Source: Roseibacillus sp. (lineage in GTDB: Bacteria > Verrucomicrobiota > Verrucomicrobiia > Verrucomicrobiales > Akkermansiaceae). Taken from it: a stretch of DNA of 28,047 nucleotides. The position numbers and the translations under genes are program-made. Location of the stretch: NCBI GenBank assembly GCA_965242925.1, contig CBDEUM010000020.1:1-28047 (forward strand). Direction: 5' to 3'. Shown in pieces: positions 8,890 through 18,165 of this stretch. Within the stretch, counting starts at the first letter, position 1; every line of letters starts with the position of its first letter. The notes beneath the pieces are model-generated. The model had not been told where the DNA came from. It saw only the letters and a list, made by a program, of their open reading frames with translations, and did not search any database.

Positions 8890-9071
8890 GTTCAATTGAG
8901 TCTCCGGCGCCCCTGAAGCCTCCCGTTCCCGATAGCCCCCGAGCTAGATTGGATAGAACAGGGTTCCCGATCGAAAGGCCCCTGCCACGACTATCAAGGT
9001 TCCTCTGCACTTCGCCTGCGAGAAATCCGGACAGGCTTCCTGTTGCCAGGGTCCTTGGATGACGCGTTCAT

Positions 9072-10256
9072 TCATTGCGGGAATAACCGTGGCGTTTTAT
9101 CCCCATCCGGAAGGGACTCGAACGCTGCTCGCAGGGGGATGTCCCGGGATTGTCTCTGAACAGGGTTGTAGCGCGGATAGATCCCCTCAAATACTCCTCG
9201 TAAGGACAAGGGTCCGGGATTTGATTCACTGTAGGTGAGAACGACTTCGAGTTCACCACCGTAGGTAAAGTCGCCTGGACCCTCGTCGGTCAGGCGCACC
9301 TTCCCGCGGAGCAGAGCATAGCGCATTTTTCCATCTGAACCCGCTGGTTTTATTGTCAGGTCGCCCTCGATTCTGTCGATCTGGTAGACCTTTTTGGTTT
9401 GCTGACTCGTGCGCTCCATTACTCCCGGCGGGTAGACCTGGGAGAGCCATTTTGTCAGAGCAGCAGCTTCTACCCTGCGCTTTTTGTGCGGATAATTAAG
9501 CGTCTTCCAGTCTTTTTTGTTGAGCGCAACAACCTCAACAACCGGCGCGCGGTAGGCGATCATGCGTTCTTCCAGCAGGCGCACGAAAATACGAATACCT
9601 GACTGTTCCAGATCCGGTAGTTTTAAGGGATGCTCTGCGGTTGGTGCGTGGGAAAGGTCCAGAGCAGGGATCGCCTGCTTTAGTCCTCTAACGGTATAGT
9701 CCCCGAGGGATTCGTGCTTTTGTCCTTGTCCTCCATCCGGGACCCGCCGGGGCCCCATCCGGCGAAAAGCGTCAAACCAGTGTACCAGGTTGCCTTCCGA
9801 GTCGAGAATGGCCAGATCCACGTTGCTTTGCTTTCCACCGAAACCCCGTCCCCTGAATTTCCTCTGCCAGACCTCTCTTACCGGGTCAGGAATATTCGGG
9901 TCATTGCGATGCCCGTGCCAGGAAGCAGCAATGAAAGGTCGCAACATGCGAACCACCTTCGGGTCTATGAGCGAGGCCCCCCGGACCTGCGTGGCGGTCG
10001 CTCAGCAGTGCCCGGAGGAGAGATCCCCGTATTGGGCATGGATGATCACCAGAAATACAGGGCGCTTTTCGCGAAGCGCCCTTTTCTGAGCCTCCTGCAG
10101 CGAGGAGGCCCAGTCGATCTGGTACATGGCAAGATCGTCTTTTCCGGGACGAAAGGCCTTGTAACGATCAAGAACGGCTCCTACTTCCGGGACTTGGGCC
10201 GGAGCGATGGCCACAGGCATCAATAATAATGCAAACACAATGCAGAGGCCTCTCAT
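9072..10256 (-). CDS. Candidate secreted selenoprotein with a thioredoxin-like fold and Cys-Sec motif (GHCU), SelN-like; 394 aa with TGA at codon 85 read as Sec
   Basis: ORFs 10002-10547 and 9072-9956 are in the same frame, separated only by TGA at 10004-10002. Read-through gives ...DWASSLQEAQKRALREKRPVFLVIIHAQYGDLSSGHC-U-ATATQVRGASLIDPKVVRMLRPFIAASW..., a continuous Trx-like pattern. Signal peptide MRGLCIVFALLLMPVAIAPA starts at ATG 10256, and a hairpin lies directly 3' of the TGA. Confidence 0.8.
9968..10004 (-). promoter_or_regulatory. Putative bacterial SECIS hairpin of the SelN-like gene
   Basis: Minus strand TGAGCGA-CCGCCACGCAGGTCCGGGGGGCC-TCGCTCA: a perfect 7-bp inverted repeat that includes the UGA. 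The inner segment can form a bulged stem with a CAGGUC loop, or alternatively AGGUCC/GGGCCU. Folded by eye. Confidence 0.6.
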
Positions 10257-10440
10257 GGCGTATTTGTCCATTCGTTCCGGGCGCGCAAGATGTCGTCCTA
10301 CAACCCTGTGCCTATTCCCTGAATAATTGAATAGAGCACCCAACTTCACCCTCGCAACGGAGAGCCTGGCCAGAGTCCCGCAGATACCGGGGCAGGCAGG
10401 CTGGCAATAATCCCTGCTGGGACTCATCCCCTGAAGCGTT

Positions 10441-13400
10441 CTACGGCGCCGCCGCGATAACTCTGACGTCATCAATGGATAATCCACTGAAAGAATCCAC
10501 GCTACCGTCACTGACGAAGTTCCATTCCACGAGAATCGTCTCTCCAAGAGCCCCGGCCGCGACGGGAATGGTGATGGTGAGATAGTCCGTGTCGAACACG
10601 CTCATGTCGATGGCGACATCCACTCCAAGCTGCACGTTGTCGACAGCACGAAGGAAACGCACCACCGCTGTGTCCCCGAAGCCATCCGCATCCCGGAAAG
10701 CGGCGAAGGAAAGCTCCGCGCCACTCACTCCAGTCAGGTCGATTGCAGGAGAACGAAGGGAGATATCAGAGTCGGAGAAATAGTCACCTAGGCCGGTGCA
10801 CCAGGCATTGGCAGATCCATCGGCCCCTTCGATCGGACCGGTGGAGCCATTAGGTGTCCCAAACTCCCACTGCGTATTCCCGTTGGCATCGTTCACCACC
10901 GTGGTCCACCCCCCCGTCCCTGACTCGAGATCGTCAAAGAAAAGAGGGGGAGCATTCTTCTCCCGGATTGCAACGAATCCCTTGCCCGGGAATGGCAGGG
11001 CGATGTCCAGCGTATTGGTGCCTGAGAGATCCGCGGGAATATTCTGCGCGTCCGCCAGACCGTCCCATGACTCCCTTGGCGAGGAAAGGTCCGCGTTGAT
11101 CAGAACGTCATAGACCTTCCCCGGCGTACTCGCCCAGGTGAGACGAAGCATGGTGGAGTCGAGCGGAGAATGGTCGACAGCCAGCTTGAGTTCGTCCCCG
11201 CCACTCCCGGAGGACACCTCAATCGAAAAGCCATAGGTCCGGGGAAGGTTGGCATGCCCGAAGCTGTCGAGGGTGTTTCCGATTACACCCGCCTCGTCAA
11301 CGTTGCCGCTGTTGGCATGGTCGGTAATACCGAAGCTGGTGTTGGTAATAATGCTGTTGGTCACTCCGAGAGCGTTGGTATTCTGAATTCCCGCCGCCAC
11401 TGTCGCTCCACCTTCCGGAATAGTGAAGACCGCCTCTTCCCCTCCGAAGGGAACCGCCCACTGAATGCCCGGTTCGGTGTCAATCGTCTCACCCACTGCC
11501 ACCACTGTGTGATTGGCAGGACCGTTCATAATGGTGAGGAAAGGAAAGACCGGCTGCGTAACACCGGCCATACCAGAGTCCGGAGCCGCATTGTAATTCC
11601 AGCTCCTGGCCTGGTAGGTCCCGGCCTCCAGAAACACCGTATCGGTGATATTGATGTTCTGCCGCATTTGGTTGTTACCGTTGGACTGGGTGTCCGTAAC
11701 CCCGGTCAGTTCCGGTCCGTAACCAATTGTGATGTAGCCGGGGCTGTTCGGGTCATTCGGATTGCTGCCCGATGCCACTTCGTCACCGTCCGGACGTCCG
11801 TCGCCGTCACTATCCGGATTCAGAGGATCCGTGCCGAGGGTGTCCTCCATCCCGTCAGAGAGGCCGTCATCGTCGCTGTCCGGATTGCCCGGATCGGTTC
11901 CGTTTGCAATCTCATCCGGGTCACTGATGCCATCATCATCGGAATCAGCCTCGGTGGGGTTGGTCCCGGCATTGTATTCCTCCAGGTCGGTGAGCCCGTC
12001 GTCATCGAAGTCGCCGGGGCCGAGCTGGCTCAGGTCCCCGGGGAAGTACTGCTCCTCGTAGCCGTCGGGGATGCTGTCGCCGTCACTGTCGATATTGGGA
12101 TCGAAGCTGTCGAGGTAGGCCCCCCAGCTCTGGCCGGCGCCGTCGGCGTCAAAGACCGCGGGAGCTCCGCTGCTGATTCCGAAGGCGCCGGCATAGCCGA
12201 TGCCGCCGAAGTCGGCGGTGTTGGAGGAGTTGCCATTGAAGTAGCCAAATCCGATGTCAGCGGCGGACTGGGCGCCGCCCCCGTCCTCGCTGAGCCAGAT
12301 ATCAACGTTGAACCAGCCGCCCCCGCCGAAATTGAAGTTGGCAAAAGTGCGGGCGTTCCAGCTCACATCGGTGTGCTGGGCGGACGCGCCGGTGGCATTC
12401 AGGTTACCGGAGCCGCCGATCGGGGTGGCTACGATCTTGACGCGATCGTCGTAGTTCTCGGTGAAGGAGAAAGTGCCGTCAGCATCATAGAACTGGAAGA
12501 TGAAGGCGAGGTCGTGGTTGTCCCCGGTGAGGTCGATGCCCCCGTTGCCCGGTTCCCGGTCCACATCAAGGGCGGAGATGAGACTGGAGTCGGGGTCGTC
12601 CGGATCCCCGAAGGGGGCGGCCTGATCGGCATTTTCGGGCAACGCCCCGGTGAAATCCGCTCCGGGCAGATTGTCGGTGCGGCGGTAGAGAATCCTTTCC
12701 GGATTGTGGGATGCCAGATCGATCTCCGGACGGGAATTGGGATCGGTGGGATCGAATCCGCCTGCAACCTCGATCCCGTCAGGGATCAAATCGTCGTCAC
12801 TGTCGGGGTCCAGGGGATCGGTGCCGGTGTTGTTGGCGTCAACGAATACACCGGTGCCAGTTTCCACTCCGTCAAGCAGGCCGTCGCCGTCGCTGTCAGG
12901 GTTGCCCGGTTCTGTGCCACCGGCGACTTCCGATCCATCGTTCACACCGTCTCCATCACTATCAGGGTCTTGTGGGTCAGTATCGCGCTCGAACTCCTCC
13001 GCATTGTTCAACCCGTCACTGTCGGGATCTCCGAGGGCTCCGTTAGGCCCGTCCCCGGCACCCGGAGCACTCTCTCCCGCTGTCCCGTCATCGTTATCGT
13101 CCAGGCCATTACCATCTTCCCAGTTGGCGGGAAGGCCGTCCCCGTCCTCGTCGGCCACAACCGCATCCTCCACCTCAATCGCGAAAGCGTAGGTGCGGGG
13201 AAGGTTGGCGTGGCCGAAGCTGTCGAGGGTGTTTCCGACTCCGCCCGCCTCGTCAAAGTTGCCGCTGTTGGCGTGGTCGGTAATACCGAAACTCGTATCG
13301 GTAAGGATGCTGTTCTGGACGCCGGTGGCATTGGTGTTCTGGACACCTGCCGCCACTGTCGCTCCCCCTATTGGAATAGTGAAGGTGTCGTCCGCCCCTC

Positions 13401-13755
13401 CAAAGGGCACCTCGGTCTGCACGCCGGGCTCCGTATCAATGGTATCACCGAAGGCCAGGACCGTGTGATTGGCCGGGCCATTGACGATCGTGAGAAAGGG
13501 GAAGACCGGTTGCGTCACACCCTGTGTAGCCGAGTCCGGAGCCGCATTGTATTCCCAGCTCGCGGCACGGTAGGTCCCCTCCGGAAGGAAGACCGTATCG
13601 GTGATGTTGATGTTCTGGCGCATCTGGTTGTTACCGTTGGACTGGGTGTCCTGGACGCCGTTGAGCGCGGTTCCGAAGCCTATCTTGATCGCGCCCGCGT
13701 CGCTCACTAGTGCGACGACGAGACAGGTGGTGAGGAGGGATTGTTTCTTAGACAT
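10441..13755 (-). CDS. Large secreted surface/adhesin-like protein (1104 aa): signal peptide, unknown domain copy 1, DxDxDG Ca-binding (bacterial TSP3-like) repeats, PA14-like domain, more repeats, unknown domain copy 2, C-terminal beta-rich domains
   Basis: Signal peptide MSKKQSLLTTCLVVALVSDAGA; many DSDxDG..D..E...GTDP repeats; internally repeated domain; C-terminal FFDDLESG..GW...W..G.P...SL.SP.IDL...GL.IDDV pattern seen in secreted proteins. Confidence 0.88.
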   Translation of the reverse strand: MSKKQSLLTTCLVVALVSDAGAIKIGFGTALNGVQDTQSNGNNQMRQNINITDTVFLPEGTYRAASWEYNAAPDSATQGVTQPVFPFLTIVNGPANHTVLAFGDTIDTEPGVQTEVPFGGADDTFTIPIGGATVAAGVQNTNATGVQNSILTDTSFGITDHANSGNFDEAGGVGNTLDSFGHANLPRTYAFAIEVEDAVVADEDGDGLPANWEDGNGLDDNDDGTAGESAPGAGDGPNGALGDPDSDGLNNAEEFERDTDPQDPDSDGDGVNDGSEVAGGTEPGNPDSDGDGLLDGVETGTGVFVDANNTGTDPLDPDSDDDLIPDGIEVAGGFDPTDPNSRPEIDLASHNPERILYRRTDNLPGADFTGALPENADQAAPFGDPDDPDSSLISALDVDREPGNGGIDLTGDNHDLAFIFQFYDADGTFSFTENYDDRVKIVATPIGGSGNLNATGASAQHTDVSWNARTFANFNFGGGGWFNVDIWLSEDGGGAQSAADIGFGYFNGNSSNTADFGGIGYAGAFGISSGAPAVFDADGAGQSWGAYLDSFDPNIDSDGDSIPDGYEEQYFPGDLSQLGPGDFDDDGLTDLEEYNAGTNPTEADSDDDGISDPDEIANGTDPGNPDSDDDGLSDGMEDTLGTDPLNPDSDGDGRPDGDEVASGSNPNDPNSPGYITIGYGPELTGVTDTQSNGNNQMRQNINITDTVFLEAGTYQARSWNYNAAPDSGMAGVTQPVFPFLTIMNGPANHTVVAVGETIDTEPGIQWAVPFGGEEAVFTIPEGGATVAAGIQNTNALGVTNSIITNTSFGITDHANSGNVDEAGVIGNTLDSFGHANLPRTYGFSIEVSSGSGGDELKLAVDHSPLDSTMLRLTWASTPGKVYDVLINADLSSPRESWDGLADAQNIPADLSGTNTLDIALPFPGKGFVAIREKNAPPLFFDDLESGTGGWTTVVNDANGNTQWEFGTPNGSTGPIEGADGSANAWCTGLGDYFSDSDISLRSPAIDLTGVSGAELSFAAFRDADGFGDTAVVRFLRAVDNVQLGVDVAIDMSVFDTDYLTITIPVAAGALGETILVEWNFVSDGSVDSFSGLSIDDVRVIAAAP
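11212..11735 (-). repeat. Second copy of the repeated domain in the large protein
   Basis: ITIGYGPELTGVTDTQSNGNNQMRQNINITDTV...FGHANLPRTYGFSIEV; boundaries approximate. Confidence 0.9.
13165..13690 (-). repeat. Copy of the ~170-aa repeated domain (N-terminal copy in the large protein)
   Basis: IKIGFGTALNGVQDTQSNGNNQMRQNINITDTV...FGHANLPRTYAFAIEV matches copies at ~11212-11735 and ~13960-14477; boundaries approximate. Confidence 0.9.
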
Positions 13756-13814
13756 GGAGCAATAAGGTCATCACAGAAAGCGCTGGCAAAACCGGATTTC
13801 TGACAGGTTGAATG

Positions 13815-13846
13815 AAAAAGGGGCGACCACTGATCTGGCCACCCCT
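13815..13846 (-). terminator. Rho-independent terminator downstream of the PEP-CTERM gene
   Basis: Minus strand AGGGGTGGCCA-GATCAG-TGGTCGCCCCT-TTTT: 11-bp stem (two G-U pairs), 6-nt loop and short U tract, about 40 nt after the stop at 13887. Confidence 0.7.
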
Positions 13847-13886
13847 GGAATGAAATCGATGTTGTTTCCTGTGCGATCGCCGACTT

Positions 13887-14540
13887 TTACCGGCGGCGGC
13901 GCAGCAGGAAGAATCCACTGAAACCGAGGAGCGCAAGACCGGAAGGCTCGGGGATCAAGTCAACCTCGACCGAAAAGGCATAGGTGCGGGGAAGGTTGGC
14001 GTGCCCGAAGCTATCGAGAGTGTTTCCGACTCCGCCCGCCTCGTCAAAGTTGCCGCTGTTGGCGTGGTCGGTAATACCGAAGCTCGTATCGGTCAGGATG
14101 CTGTTCTGGACGCCGGTCGCATTGGTGTTCTGGACTCCTGCCGCAATCGTTGTTGCCTGGGTGAGGGTGAAGACATTGTTCGCCCCACCAAAGGCCACCC
14201 CACTCTGGATGCCCGGCTCGGTATCGATCGTCGACCCGTATGCAAGCACCGTGTGATTAGCAGGACCGTTCACGGCGGTAAGGAAGGGGAAGACCGGTTG
14301 CGTGACGCTACCATTCCCGGAGTCTGCCCCGGCAAGGTAATCCCATGACGTAGCCTGATAGGTTCCAGGCTGAAGCACTACCGTGTTGGTAATGTTGATG
14401 TTCTGGCGCATCTGGTTGTTGCCGTTGGATTGGGTGTCCTGGACGCCGTTCAATCCGGTTCCGAAACCGATCGTAACAGCTCCAGCGCTCCCAGCGAGAA
14501 CGACGGTAAAACAAGTGCTGAGCAGGGTATGAATTCTCAT
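13887..14540 (-). CDS. PEP-CTERM sorting domain protein made of one copy of the repeated domain
   Basis: Signal peptide MRIHTLLSTCFTVVLAGSAGA; C-terminal IPEPSGLALLGFSGFFLLRRRR is a canonical PEP-CTERM (exosortase target) signal. Confidence 0.95.
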   Translation of the reverse strand: MRIHTLLSTCFTVVLAGSAGAVTIGFGTGLNGVQDTQSNGNNQMRQNINITNTVVLQPGTYQATSWDYLAGADSGNGSVTQPVFPFLTAVNGPANHTVLAYGSTIDTEPGIQSGVAFGGANNVFTLTQATTIAAGVQNTNATGVQNSILTDTSFGITDHANSGNFDEAGGVGNTLDSFGHANLPRTYAFSVEVDLIPEPSGLALLGFSGFFLLRRRR

Positions 14541-14670
14541 AAAAGTAACGGGTGCTTCCTCTGAAAAAAAACCAGTTTAAAGACCCAGGGTAAAGCATTT
14601 TCTTCGTGCAAAAGATCCCTGCATCCCGCCATAACTGCCTCCACGTTCCGATTTTTGCCCTTCCTCCGGG

Positions 14671-17600
14671 ATGAACCGATTTGCCCCCACTGCCCTCGCC
14701 CTGCCCCTCTTGCTCTCCGCATGCCGGGATTCAGGGCAGAATACGGCCTCCCCCGTGCAAAACGGCGCCCCCGACGAGCTGCTTCAAGTCATTGTTCATC
14801 CGACCATCCGGCCCGAGCGACCGTCACTCATGCAAACTTCGGCGCTCCTGACAAAAAATACTTCGGAACTGCCTATTACTAAGGCAACCGCCCGGCACAC
14901 CGCTGCCGACCGGGAAGCGGCCAATTTGAGTGCCGAGGCAGCCGGATGGCACTCCGAGACCCGCGCCAGCCTTGCAATGCGACAATTGGGCAAACTGGCT
15001 GACAGCACGACCGAAGGCGCCCTCGCGACCCTGCTCGCGACTGACTTCTCGTGCCCCTCCCTGATCCCCGCCGATCTTGAAGAGATCACACTGCCCGGTG
15101 GAATCCGCATCATCAGGGGCACCAACTTCCAAGCAACGGCAGAGGGCCTCTTCTCCGAACTCTCCCGACTGCGTAAGCGCATCAGCAGTGGAGATCAGTC
15201 GGCGCTCCGCTTCAAACCGGTGGGGATTGAAACCGATGCTACCGGAGAGAACTTCACCACCGAAGTCCTGGTCGAAGTGGTGGCCCTGGAGAGTGCGTCC
15301 CAGATCGATGCCTCCTGGCGTTGTTCATGGACTGGGGAGGAAGAACCAAGGCTGACCAACCTCACCGTGACCGGGTTCCGCGAGGTGCACGCGCCGAATC
15401 CTCTCTTCGCGGATGCCACCCGGAGCGCCTTTCGCCAAACTCCCTCTTTCGCGCAGCAGATGATGTCCGGGATCGGATCCTGGTCTCAGCACCTGACGAG
15501 GGTTGATGACATGGCGCTCACCGGCCACCATGGAGTGGCGGTGGGCGACATCAACGGGGATGGCCGCGACGACCTCTATGCCTGCGACGGTGGCGGCCTG
15601 CCCAATCGCCTCTATGTTCAGCAGGCCGACGGCACCGTCCGCGACCGCTCCGCAGAAGCGCAGGTCGACTTCCTGGAAGACACCCGCAGTGCACTGATCA
15701 TCGATCTGGACAACGATGGTGACCAGGACCTGGTCGTGGGCACCGTTGCCCTGGTTCTCTTCCTGGAAAATGACGGCACAGGAGTGTTTGCCCTGCGCGG
15801 GGGCCACCCGGGCTCGCCCGGTCCCTACTCCATGGCGGCTGCCGACTACGACAATGACGGTGACCTCGACGTCTACGTGACCGGTTACGGCCAGCACCGT
15901 GATGGCGGGGGAGGCCGGGGCTTCGAGGCCAGCGCTCCCATCCCCTACCACGACGCCAACAACGGCGGACGCAACCTCCTCCTCGCCAATCATGGACAGT
16001 TTCGTTTCTCCGACGTGACTGCCCGGACCGGGCTCGATCAAAACAACACCCGCTGGTCCTTCGCCGCGGCCTGGGAGGACTATGATCGCGATGGGGACAG
16101 TGATCTCTACGTGGTCAATGACTTCGGGAGAAACAACCTTTACCGCAACGAGGGTGGCACCTTCCGCGACATCGCAGCCGAGGCAGGGGTGGAAGATATG
16201 GCGGGAGGAATGTCGGCGGGTTGGGGCGACGCCAACGGAGATGGCAAACCGGATCTCTACGTCGGCAACATGTTCTCGGCGGCCGGCAACCGCGTCACCT
16301 ACCAGCGCCGCTTCCAGGATGCTCGCACTGCTGGTGACAGCACCGCCCTGCAACGCATGGCCCGGGGAAACAGTCTCTTCCATCAGGAAGCGGACGGGAC
16401 CTTCCGGGACGTCAGCGAGGACTCCGGGGTCACCATGGGGCGCTGGGCGTGGAGCTCCGGATTTGTCGATCTGAACAATGACGGCTGGCAGGATCTGGTA
16501 GTCAGCAACGGCTACCTTTCCAGCCCCAGCACCGAAGATCTCTGAAGTTTCTTCTGGCGGCAGGTCGTGTCGCCCTCCCCGGTCAACGCACAGGACCAAA
16601 AGAGTATTGAACGCTACACCGCCTCCTGGGCCGCCCTCATGCAGCAGGTCCGCAGGGGAGCCTCCTGGAGTGGATACGAACGCAACTGCTCCTTCCTCAA
16701 CACCGGCGGCAGGTTTGTGGGTGCCTCGCATGTGAGTGGCCTCGATTTCCCGGATGACGGACGCGGACTGGCCGTCACGGACTGGGACCAGGACGGCGAC
16801 CTGGACCTCTGGTTCAGCAATCGCACCGCTCCACGCCTGCGCCTCATGCTCAATCAATCCTCCCGGCAACGCCCCGCGCAGCATATCGCCTTCCGGCTCG
16901 TGGGAAGCGAGTGCAACCGCGATGCGATTGGAGCGGTGGTCGAACTACACCTGGAGGACTCGGGGGGACCGGCCCCGCGTCTGGTGCGTTCCGTCCGTGC
17001 CGGAGACCTCTTCCTCTCGCAGTCGAGCAAGTGGATTCATTTCGGAGTGCCCGAAAACGCCACCGTGGCGTCCGTTTCGGTCCTCTGGCCCGGTGGGTCG
17101 CGCAGCAGCTGTTCCGATATCACCGTCGGTCAGCGATATCTCCTTTGCCAGGGAGAGCCTTCCGCTCTACAGGAATCCGGCCGTCATCCCCGCCGGGTGA
17201 GCCTGGATACCGCCCCGCTGGCCACTGTCAACACATCCCCCGGGCAGGTCTCGCTGGTCCTGCCCGCCCCCATCCGGTTGCCCCTCTCCTCCTACCACCA
17301 CTCCAGTGGTTCCGAAGTTGCCCTCCCTCTCGCGGAAACAGCCCGCCTCATCCTCTTCTGGTCAGCCCACTGTCCTCACTGCCACGAGGAACTCAAACGC
17401 CTGGCCGCGAATCCTCCCGGGGTGAACGTCCTGGCCCTCTGTGTCGACGGTAGGACCAAGCCCGCTCGCGAGGTCGCCCGGTCGACCCTTTCCGGGGTCG
17501 GCTACACCGCTTCGTGGGGAATGGTGGGAGCTGCCGAACTCGAACGCTTGCACCTTCTTCAGGAGTCCCTCTTCGATTCCACTCCCCCTTTTGCCGTTCC

Positions 17601-18165
17601 CTTCTCACTCCTAGTCCGGTCGGACAACCAGATCGTGGCGATCTACCGTGGCGCCCTTTCGCTCCCGGTTCTTGCCCACGACACCCGGTATGTGGTCCCC
17701 GCCCCGGACCAGCAACTGCGGAATCTCGCCCCTCCTTTCCCCGGTCGCTGGTTCACCAACCCCGTCGGCCCCACCTTCCTTCCCCTTCTCGTTGCCCGGC
17801 GCAACCTGGCCCGCTATCCGGAAGAAGCCCTCCTCTATCTCCAGCAGGCCGCGGAAGATTCAGTCGAGAGCGAGAGGTCCGATCTCATGACCGAGCTGGG
17901 ACGTCGGCACTACCTCCTGGCCGCCGAATTCGCAACCAGTCAACTTTTTGAGAAGTCAGACTACCACTATCAGAAATCTCTGGCCGCCGTTCCCCACAAC
18001 CCATCCGTGCACAACGACTTCGGCGCGTCCCTGGCACAAAGGGGAAAACTGCGGGAAGGCGCACAGCATTTCCGGGAAGCGCTCCGCCTGAAACCTGACT
18101 TCCCCCTCGCCAGAGAGAATCTATCCAAGGTGGAAGAACTGCTGAAACAAGCGGGTGAACGATGA
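14671..18165 (+). CDS. Candidate selenoprotein: lipoprotein with FG-GAP/VCBS repeats, ASPIC-UnbV domain (CRTAC1-like), TlpA-like CPHC redoxin domain and TPRs; 1164 aa with TGA at codon 625 read as Sec
   Basis: Lipobox LLLSAC; DxxxDGxxDL repeats continue on both sides of the in-frame TGA at 16543-16545 (...SSPSTEDL-U-SFFWRQVVSPSP...DWDQDGDLDL). These are followed by NRDAIGAVV...FLSQSS..IHFG...V.WP.G (ASPIC/UnbV), FWSAHCPHCHEEL and a TPR tail (HNDFGASLAQRGK..E...HFREALRLKPDF..ARENL). Confidence 0.8.
16543..16574 (+). promoter_or_regulatory. Putative bacterial SECIS hairpin of the FG-GAP/ASPIC gene
   Basis: TGA + 10 nt (AGTTTCTTCT) + GGCGGCA-GGTCG-TGTCGCC (16556-16574): 7-bp stem with one G-U pair and a G-starting apical loop, at the spacing expected for a bacterial SECIS. 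Confidence 0.7.

Follow-up and report, generated by a model that had tools for sequence, protein, structure and literature searches.

The window analysed here is contig C20 of a Roseibacillus sp. assembly over its entire length of 28,047 bases, and it carries two genes whose reading frame is interrupted by a TGA codon followed at short distance by the heptamer GCAGGTC. On the plus strand, positions 14671..18165 encode, according to translation and Pfam, a CRTAC1-like protein of 1164 codons with FG-GAP, UnbV_ASPIC, thioredoxin-like (CPHC) and TPR segments, in which the TGA (16543..16545) is codon 625 and stands, by translation and homologue alignment, in the motif DL-U-SFFWRQVV, where U is selenocysteine (Sec). 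On the minus strand, positions 9072..10256 encode, according to translation and orthologue alignment, an exported and unannotated protein of 394 codons with a signal peptide, in which the TGA (10002..10004) is codon 85, in the motif SGHC-U-ATATQVRG. Translation table 11 cuts the plus-strand gene into the open reading frames (ORFs) 14671..16545 and 16567..18165, and the minus-strand gene into the ORFs 10002..10547 and 9072..9956. The reading favoured here, with a probability of about 75%, is that both TGAs are Sec codons, that each is recoded by an ordinary bacterial selenocysteine insertion sequence (SECIS), and that the heptamer is not their common signal. The assembly has 42 contigs and 4.58 Mb (G+C 60%, completeness 89.9%); sites outside the window are given below as contig:position.

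Both loci have the properties of selenoprotein genes, as the in-frame UGA is conserved and the frame and the conservation continue past it. The plus-strand product matches FG-GAP_3 with 135.8 bits (cut-off 26.9), UnbV_ASPIC with 49.6 bits (cut-off 23.4) and TPR; these FG-GAP repeats followed by UnbV_ASPIC, both above the Pfam cut-off, make it a member of the CRTAC1-like (ASPIC-UnbV) family, and the UnbV_ASPIC domain is located past the TGA. At the Sec column, a TGA is found in 41 of 67 high-scoring segment pairs, the other 26 being low-identity secondary alignments to other repeats or paralogues. The family is present in 36 of 61 related genomes with 562 matches, and exactly one TGA occurs in all 150 of these matches that were listed. 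Within the genome itself, 13 family members, the window copy included, share this TGA column, within the motif DL-U-S..W(R/Q)..VV; the others are encoded at C12:51079, C12:89967, C13:132387, C13:146637, C17:49805, C22:99699, C28:4493, C29:2749, C30:153375, C30:361056, C34:106360 and C37:896. The copies at C12:51079 and C17:49805 are identical across the stretch read, which may reflect redundancy in the assembly.

The plus-strand TGA is followed by a SECIS hairpin (16556..16574), identified by RNAalifold, by covariation and by a control with homologues lacking the TGA. It consists of a 5' arm GGCGGCA (16556-16562), a loop GGUCG (16563-16567) and a 3' arm UGUCGCC (16568-16574), that is, a 7-bp stem and a 5-nt loop situated 17 nt after the UGA, with a folding energy of -10.6 kcal/mol; the heptamer (16560-16566) provides the last three stem bases and the GGUC of the loop. 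In alignment A3, composed of the window and 28 further loci anchored at the TGA (29 sequences), columns 14/15-20 pair with columns 26-31/32 around the GGUCG loop, the same stem is returned by RNAalifold, and 87.7% of the cells are paired. Pair 18-28, which ties the third base of an Arg codon to the first base of a Ser/Ala codon, occurs as GU (18 sequences), AU (6), CG (2) and UG (1), and the covariation score of the alignment was reached by 1 of 500 column shuffles. The loop is AGUCG in one of the 29 sequences. Two misfit rows belong to a WRTVV subfamily that has perfect stems of its own, one register over (GCGCAC/GUGCG and GAGCAC/GUGCUC), with a GGUC loop.

It could be argued that the heptamer and the hairpins are an RNA-level coincidence, the footprint of conserved Gln-Val protein motifs with no role in recoding. 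Indeed, WRQVV is conserved in homologues without a TGA, SGHC-U-ATATQVRG is invariant in 13 of 13 aligned orthologues of the minus-strand gene, the heptamer is frequent as an in-frame codon pair, and the fold energies are unremarkable when compared with shuffles. This explanation is nevertheless very improbable in view of 80 soil-metagenome loci of homologues without the TGA, of which 73 contain the motif and which yield 60 distinct sequences. SFFWRQV is kept in all 73 loci, with Ser (54), Ala (14) or Gly (5) at the site, but the 6-bp stem is fully paired in none of the 60 sequences, against 33 of 40 distinct Sec-type sequences; GTC is used for the Val in 20 of 60 against 40 of 40, GGTCG stands at the loop columns in 12 of 60 against 37 of 40, the exact heptamer is found in 5 of 60 against 21 of 40, and the mean minimum free energy is -5.3 against -10.3 kcal/mol (Mann-Whitney p = 2e-16). 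GGTC is present at the loop columns in 38 of the 40 Sec-type sequences and thus lies at the apex, as in the fdhF-type element. The protein motif thus accounts for the presence of CAG-GT, and only the TGA-bearing genes have the stem and hold the synonymous sites fixed, as expected of a SECIS. Two further observations speak against a coincidence: one stem pair of the plus-strand gene occurs as four pair types, and in the minus-strand gene the third codon positions are free before the hairpin and fixed inside it.

Among homologues of the plus-strand product, Cys is present at the Sec position in 2 of 11 sampled full-length sequences and in 4 of 91 database homologues covered by a motif scan, the remainder having S, N, A, G or another residue. 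In this crude motif scan (P0003-P0122), a downstream CxxC accompanies 3 of the 4 Cys forms, against 2 of the 87 sequences with other residues. This hints at a redox relay from Sec or Cys to the CxxC, which most soil homologues could have lost.

All 16 distinct orthologue sequences retain the minus-strand TGA, even where protein identity falls to 48%. Translation of this gene likely begins at the Met at 10256, or possibly at 10271; counted from 10256, the protein has a signal peptide and its Sec is residue 85, an arrangement shared by 10 of 13 orthologues. Orthologues with the TGA are encoded in five other genomes of the genus and belong to Verrucomicrobiales, Roseibacillus sp. and metagenome-assembled genomes of marine Planctomycetota. 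The protein has no match in Pfam or NCBIfam. In a word-indexed search with 175 matches, the 120 listed have lengths of 224-346 residues, align to 43-73% of the query and all begin past the TGA. A HMMER profile search of 1.84 billion representatives returned 238 matches; among the best 150 of them, single-domain family matches either stop no later than profile position 84 or start no earlier than position 90, and none spans residue 85. Five N-terminal fragments of the family were examined and all end in ...GHC. No Cys form was seen among these matches, and every database entry examined is split at the TGA; if Sec is obligate in this family, all its entries in the library would be fragments cut at the UGA. 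In two giant proteins, P0248 (4728 aa) and P0366 (1656 aa), the similarity is confined to an internal stretch of about 35 residues from the C-terminal domain of the minus-strand protein (profile positions about 297-339), which matches them 42 and 14 times, respectively; judging from these matches, it resembles a repeat unit used elsewhere.

That database entries are fragments, that public annotation has two genes at each locus and that SelA is missing from the assembly can all be cited for the opposite view, in which the TGAs are true stops in split genes or pseudogenes, or sites of termination with restart, and the hairpins are irrelevant or act otherwise. This view is extremely improbable. 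The codon is TGA in all 150 listed members of the plus-strand family and in 16 of 16 orthologues of the minus-strand gene, the reading frame is maintained on both sides, and past it follow a Pfam domain and conserved sequence. With termination at the TGA, the minus-strand gene would yield N-terminal signal-peptide stubs of 84 residues with GHC at their end. Apart from SelA, the Sec machinery was found: the genome encodes one tRNA-Sec with the anticodon tca (found by ARAGORN); a SelB, which scores 287.5 bits against a curated cut-off of 242 in a profile search of the genome and is composed of GTP_EFTU, a SelB beta-barrel and the winged-helix domains SelB-wing_2 and SelB-wing_3; and a SelD (366.6 bits), which has its own in-frame TGA within the motif SSCAG-U-ASKLG. 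The proposal of the sequence-only reading that both TGAs are Sec codons is supported by the conservation of the TGA in relatives and of a hairpin after each.

The hairpin conserved in the minus-strand gene (9974..9988), its probable SECIS, was recognised from the RNAalifold consensus and from conservation among orthologues. It has a 5' arm AGGUCC (9988-9983), a triloop GGG (9982-9980) and a 3' arm GGGCCU (9979-9974), with 19 nt from the UGA to the 3-nt loop and a 6-bp stem; the triloop is GUG in most orthologues. In alignment A2, composed of 16 distinct nucleotide sequences of orthologues, the first four codons after the TGA are free at third positions, and GTC and GGG are each present in 15 of 16. 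RNAalifold pairs A17-U31 through C22-G26 around a three-base loop G(G/U)G, 95.8% of the cells are paired, two pairs have one-sided changes, and one CG is swapped to GC. The 6-bp form has a free energy of -6.8 kcal/mol in the window and of -7.4 kcal/mol in most orthologues; with a 2-bp extension, itself only partly conserved, and a bulged C, the values are -8.3 or -8.9 kcal/mol. The heptamer (9990-9984) overlaps the 5' arm, and its GGUC lies in that arm and not at the apex as in fdhF. Consequently, the earlier placement of the heptamer at or near a hairpin apex holds for the plus-strand gene only: single-sequence folds put it at or within the apical loop in both genes, but orthologues of the minus-strand gene break that fold. 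The heptamer of the minus-strand gene would thus be a 5' arm; this assignment is made with less confidence than that of the plus-strand gene, because its support is conservation and not covariation. Two other folds of this site were rejected. The single-sequence minimum free energy fold (a long stem from the UGA, loop CAGGUC) is paired in 73.1% of the cells, with pairs broken in 11 and 14 of the 16 sequences. The stem CCACG/CGUGG with the loop CAGGUC is paired in 81.3%, has no covariation, is equalled by 500 of 500 shuffles and has an energy of -0.5 kcal/mol in the window copy.

According to the favoured reading, a small hairpin within the coding sequence, just 3' of the UGA, would recode each TGA: SelB-GTP with Sec-tRNA(Sec) would bind the hairpin and bring Sec to the ribosome, so that Sec would be inserted at both sites. 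In the plus-strand gene the element is fdhF-like: its stem of 6-7 bp ends in GCA/UGU below the loop GGUCG, and the heptamer forms the top of the stem and the loop. The element of the minus-strand gene would be a 6-bp stem AGGUCC/GG(A/G)CCU with a G(G/U)G triloop, to which the heptamer would supply the 5' arm only.

The spacing claimed for the heptamer is exact: on the minus strand the TGA (10004..10002) is followed by 11 nt and then by GCAGGTC (9990..9984), and on the plus strand the TGA (16543..16545) is followed by 14 nt and then by GCAGGTC (16560..16566). In both genes it is read in the frame N-G/CAG/GTC and encodes Gln-Val, in proteins that are indeed unrelated (BLASTP best E 0.31). The statement that the same word occurs in E. 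coli fdhF is likewise correct, since in NC_000913 the TGA is followed by 15 nt and GCAGGTC. The window contains 12 copies of the heptamer where 4.6 are expected, a number reached in none of 100 shuffles; at least 7 of the 12 are in the Gln-Val coding frame, 4 of these within the plus-strand gene, and the heptamer is here a common Gln-Val codon pair. Across the genome, 179 of 141,279 TGA triplets (0.13%) have a copy starting 9-16 nt past them. The heptamer is also rare at that distance after the TGA stops of long ORFs (2 of 1,057; 0.19%). The triplets found upstream of it (TGA 179, TGG 215, TGC 183) display no enrichment of TGA. It is unlikely that two unrelated in-frame TGAs would both be followed by the heptamer by chance, although the motif was chosen post hoc. 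Since the folds are about as stable as those of shuffles, the bare observation is suggestive, and comparison with other sequences has to carry the weight.

The other selenoprotein genes of the genome were sought by ranking in-frame TGAs with coding potential on both sides by a dicodon score, and 20 sites were checked with Pfam. Scoring by codon usage performed poorly, with antisense frames dominating, and the dicodon score was used instead. A Pfam domain spans the TGA in a peroxiredoxin (Prx) (C14:407258), in three Thioredoxin_8 proteins (Trx_8) (C22:23539; C14:613464; C14:614227), in an AhpD-like protein (C14:245880), which reaches 22.7 bits for a cut-off of 23, and in FdhA (C22:63568). A second FG-GAP protein with the motif STUCSTFC (C34:29322) has domain matches on both sides of the TGA, and the TGA of SelD (C14:573883) is upstream of the AIRS domain, in the canonical SelD active-site motif. 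Two further Sec sites, GTTUGSC and GCTUNNG, are probable, and the sites C12:64342 and C9:2407 are in the same list. The genome thus has at least 22 selenoprotein genes, including the 13 ASPIC-family sites and the minus-strand gene. The candidates L080, L087, L088, L089 and L091 were rejected as Sec sites, Pfam indicating adjacent genes. A scan of 7,036 open-frame TGAs with a generic bacterial SECIS (bSECIS) model gave 155 hairpin matches, 42 of them with a coding score; these were mostly false and revealed no new family. The stretches C25:10374 / C37:56626, C25:10563 / C37:56437 and C25:12061 / C37:54939 are identical in opposite orientation, and this is a duplicated or redundantly assembled region.

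Judged by their best hairpins, these genes differ in the SECIS loop. GGUC-type loops are found in the ASPIC family, in SelD (UCGCGCA[GGUCC]UGCGCGG, loop 32 nt after the TGA, with the exact heptamer at the apex, 29 nt after the TGA) and in FdhA (GUCGCC[GGUCU]GGCGGC). AGUU-type loops, counted in five families, include those of the Trx_8, AhpD-like, second FG-GAP and GTTUGSC genes, and G-rich triloops are found in the minus-strand gene (GGG) and in Prx (GGA). One genome with one SelB therefore uses at least two loop classes, GGUC-type and AGUU-type, together with G-rich triloops.

In this light, the suggestion that GCAGGUC is itself the word recognised by SelB in the lineage, exposed at the apex in both genes and serving as a signature of Sec sites, is unlikely, although it retains some arguments. 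E. coli fdhF has the same word at a similar distance, and in the genome studied here both the plus-strand gene and SelD carry it at a hairpin apex. Ordinary TGAs are seldom followed by it (0.13-0.19%), and of about 10 unrelated selenoprotein families, 3 contain the exact heptamer within 35 nt, where the background rate is 0.4-0.6%. However, the fold that exposes it in the minus-strand gene is broken in orthologues, so that the word has differing roles in the two genes, and its exact form is missing from 19 of the 40 distinct Sec-type ASPIC sequences, where ACAGGTC, TCAGGTC, CCAGGTC, GCAAGTC and CACGGTC occur as variants. Furthermore, FdhA has GCCGGUC, and Prx, the three Trx_8 genes, the AhpD-like gene, the second FG-GAP gene and the GTTUGSC gene, with AGUU or GGA loops, lack the heptamer altogether; once the two genes that defined it are set aside, it is found in 1 of 8 families, where about 4.5% is expected by chance. 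Nor does the heptamer serve well for mining selenoproteins, as had been hoped: of the 179 genomic matches, 22 are flanked on either side by at least 40 open codons, and true sites are confined to the top 6 of these, namely five ASPIC paralogues and the minus-strand gene. In the favoured reading, the heptamer is a by-product and not a lineage-wide recognition word. It would have two sources, a very common Gln-Val codon pair within the conserved motifs WRQVV and TQVRG, and selection at the RNA level freezing those codons.

Compared with known systems, the plus-strand gene resembles E. coli fdhF in having a hairpin within the ORF directly 3' of the UGA, a GGUC loop with closing pairs of the GCA/UGC type, and a similar heptamer spacing (14 nt, against 15 nt in fdhF), and the SelB encoded here has SECIS-binding winged-helix domains, a further likeness to the fdhF system. 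The fdhF SECIS has a bulged U, whereas the stem of the plus-strand gene is without a bulged base and carries the 5-nt loop GGUCG. The minus-strand hairpin is unlike fdhF in having GGUC in an arm and a G-rich triloop. The bSECISearch consensus, as summarised in a 2026 review (PMC13188914), comprises a loop 3-9 nt long on a stem of 4-16 bp, 16-37 nt from the UGA to the loop, a G in one of the first two loop positions with G or U after it, and an energy of at most -7.5 kcal/mol. Both hairpins of the window fit its limits for loop, stem, G(G/U) and spacing (17 and 19 nt), and the hairpins of the other selenoprotein families of the genome also fit it (PMC13188914). Both hairpins would be ordinary SECIS elements of a known kind.

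As regards the families, Table S9 of Kim et al. 2016 (PMC4807772) lists an ASPIC selenoprotein family, annotated as two genes, in which the in-frame TGA aligns to a non-Cys Gly in an acidobacterial match and bSECISearch is positive for 3 of 4 candidates. The present results go beyond that table with 13 TGA sites in one verrucomicrobial genome and with a SECIS backed by covariation and by the non-TGA control. The main text of the 2026 review (PMC13188914) does not mention FG-GAP, ASPIC, VCBS, Verrucomicrobia or Planctomycetes. The main text of the BSepDB paper is without FG-GAP, ASPIC, CRTAC, Verrucomicrobia and Planctomycetes, and in the accessible parts of its supplement FG-GAP, ASPIC, VCBS, CRTAC, Thioredoxin_7 and DUF255 are absent. 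Literature searches on selenoproteins with FG-GAP, UnbV or CRTAC1 returned nothing relevant. The plus-strand family is already listed in the 2016 table, and the minus-strand family looks uncatalogued.

The product of the minus-strand gene shares some features with the UxxC/CxxU thioredoxin-fold selenoproteins, which include Trx_8, Prx and AhpD-like proteins of the same genome: it is exported, its Sec follows a beta-strand-like stretch (PVFLVIIHAQYGD), and the Sec context weakly resembles Thioredoxin_7. It is unlike them in having a vicinal Cys-Sec pair (HCU), no second Cys three residues away and no significant Pfam model. Thioredoxin_7 is a weak match in 4 of 13 orthologues (best E 0.044), and a profile search of PDB with the protein found nothing significant (3ira_A, E 0.21); a thioredoxin-like fold of the N-terminal domain was not established by these searches, and the matches are weak hints that the domain may be thioredoxin-like. 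The protein encoded at C9:2407 (KPIFLWEMDGHPLGCT-U-NNG) resembles the N-terminal part of the minus-strand protein. On balance, we lean slightly towards regarding the minus-strand gene as the representative of an uncatalogued, obligately Sec-containing exported family of marine Verrucomicrobiota and Planctomycetota, with a vicinal Cys-Sec pair, a G-rich-triloop SECIS and no Cys form.

Several observations weigh against reading both TGAs as Sec codons with ordinary SECIS elements. Single-sequence folding gives hairpins at both sites, but they are about as stable as those of dinucleotide shuffles (z = 0.07, -0.17, -0.29 and 0.17), and an Rfam scan of positions 9000-17500 with E up to 10 returned five chance-level matches and no SECIS family. 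In the minus-strand gene, the hairpin is supported mostly by conservation, with one both-sided change and 35 of 500 shuffles doing equally well; its triloop is GGG, without a U, in 5 of 16 sequences; and the -6.8 kcal/mol of its 6-bp form is weaker than the consensus-model limit of -7.5 kcal/mol as reported in the review, which the plus-strand hairpin satisfies at -10.6 and the minus-strand hairpin only with the extension and the bulged C, at -8.3 kcal/mol. The non-Sec homologues of the plus-strand product mostly have Ser, Asn, Ala or Gly at the site and not Cys, and no Cys form of the minus-strand family is present among the listed database matches, so that the classical Sec/Cys pair is missing in the latter family. 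The presence of the heptamer at the SelD apex makes a genuine preference for this word somewhat plausible. Finally, SelA was not seen with TIGR00474 or PF03841 in this 89.9%-complete assembly; as 18 of 19 other genomes of the genus have a SelA scoring above the cut-off, its absence here is likely due to an assembly gap.

The two selenoprotein genes are separated by a minus-strand gene (10441-13755) coding for a 1104-residue protein with bacterial TSP3 repeats, and by a 217-residue minus-strand ORF without family (13887-14540). No conserved operon was found around the minus-strand selenoprotein gene; only the two closest relatives have the TSP3-repeat gene and ilvN on its flanks (three locus records, including two of the same DNA).

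In summary, four database ORFs become two selenoprotein genes, and a simple shared word proves a poor guide to bacterial SECIS elements. A descriptor of the CRTAC1-like family, composed of DL-U-S..WRQVV and a 6-7 bp stem with a GGUCG loop 17 nt past the UGA, a stem that is missing where the TGA is missing, could be used to re-annotate mis-split genes of this family, which has 562 matches in 61 related genomes. Selenoprotein-rich bacteria are placed mostly among anaerobes in the 2026 review (PMC13188914); the organism studied here, apparently an aerobic marine heterotroph, encodes at least 22 selenoproteins, and a single exported family accounts for over half of these. The apparently obligate-Sec family of the minus-strand gene is the more interesting remainder of this analysis: with no Cys form and with a Cys-Sec pair, it would, if real, be an unusual case for understanding why selenium is indispensable at some sites.

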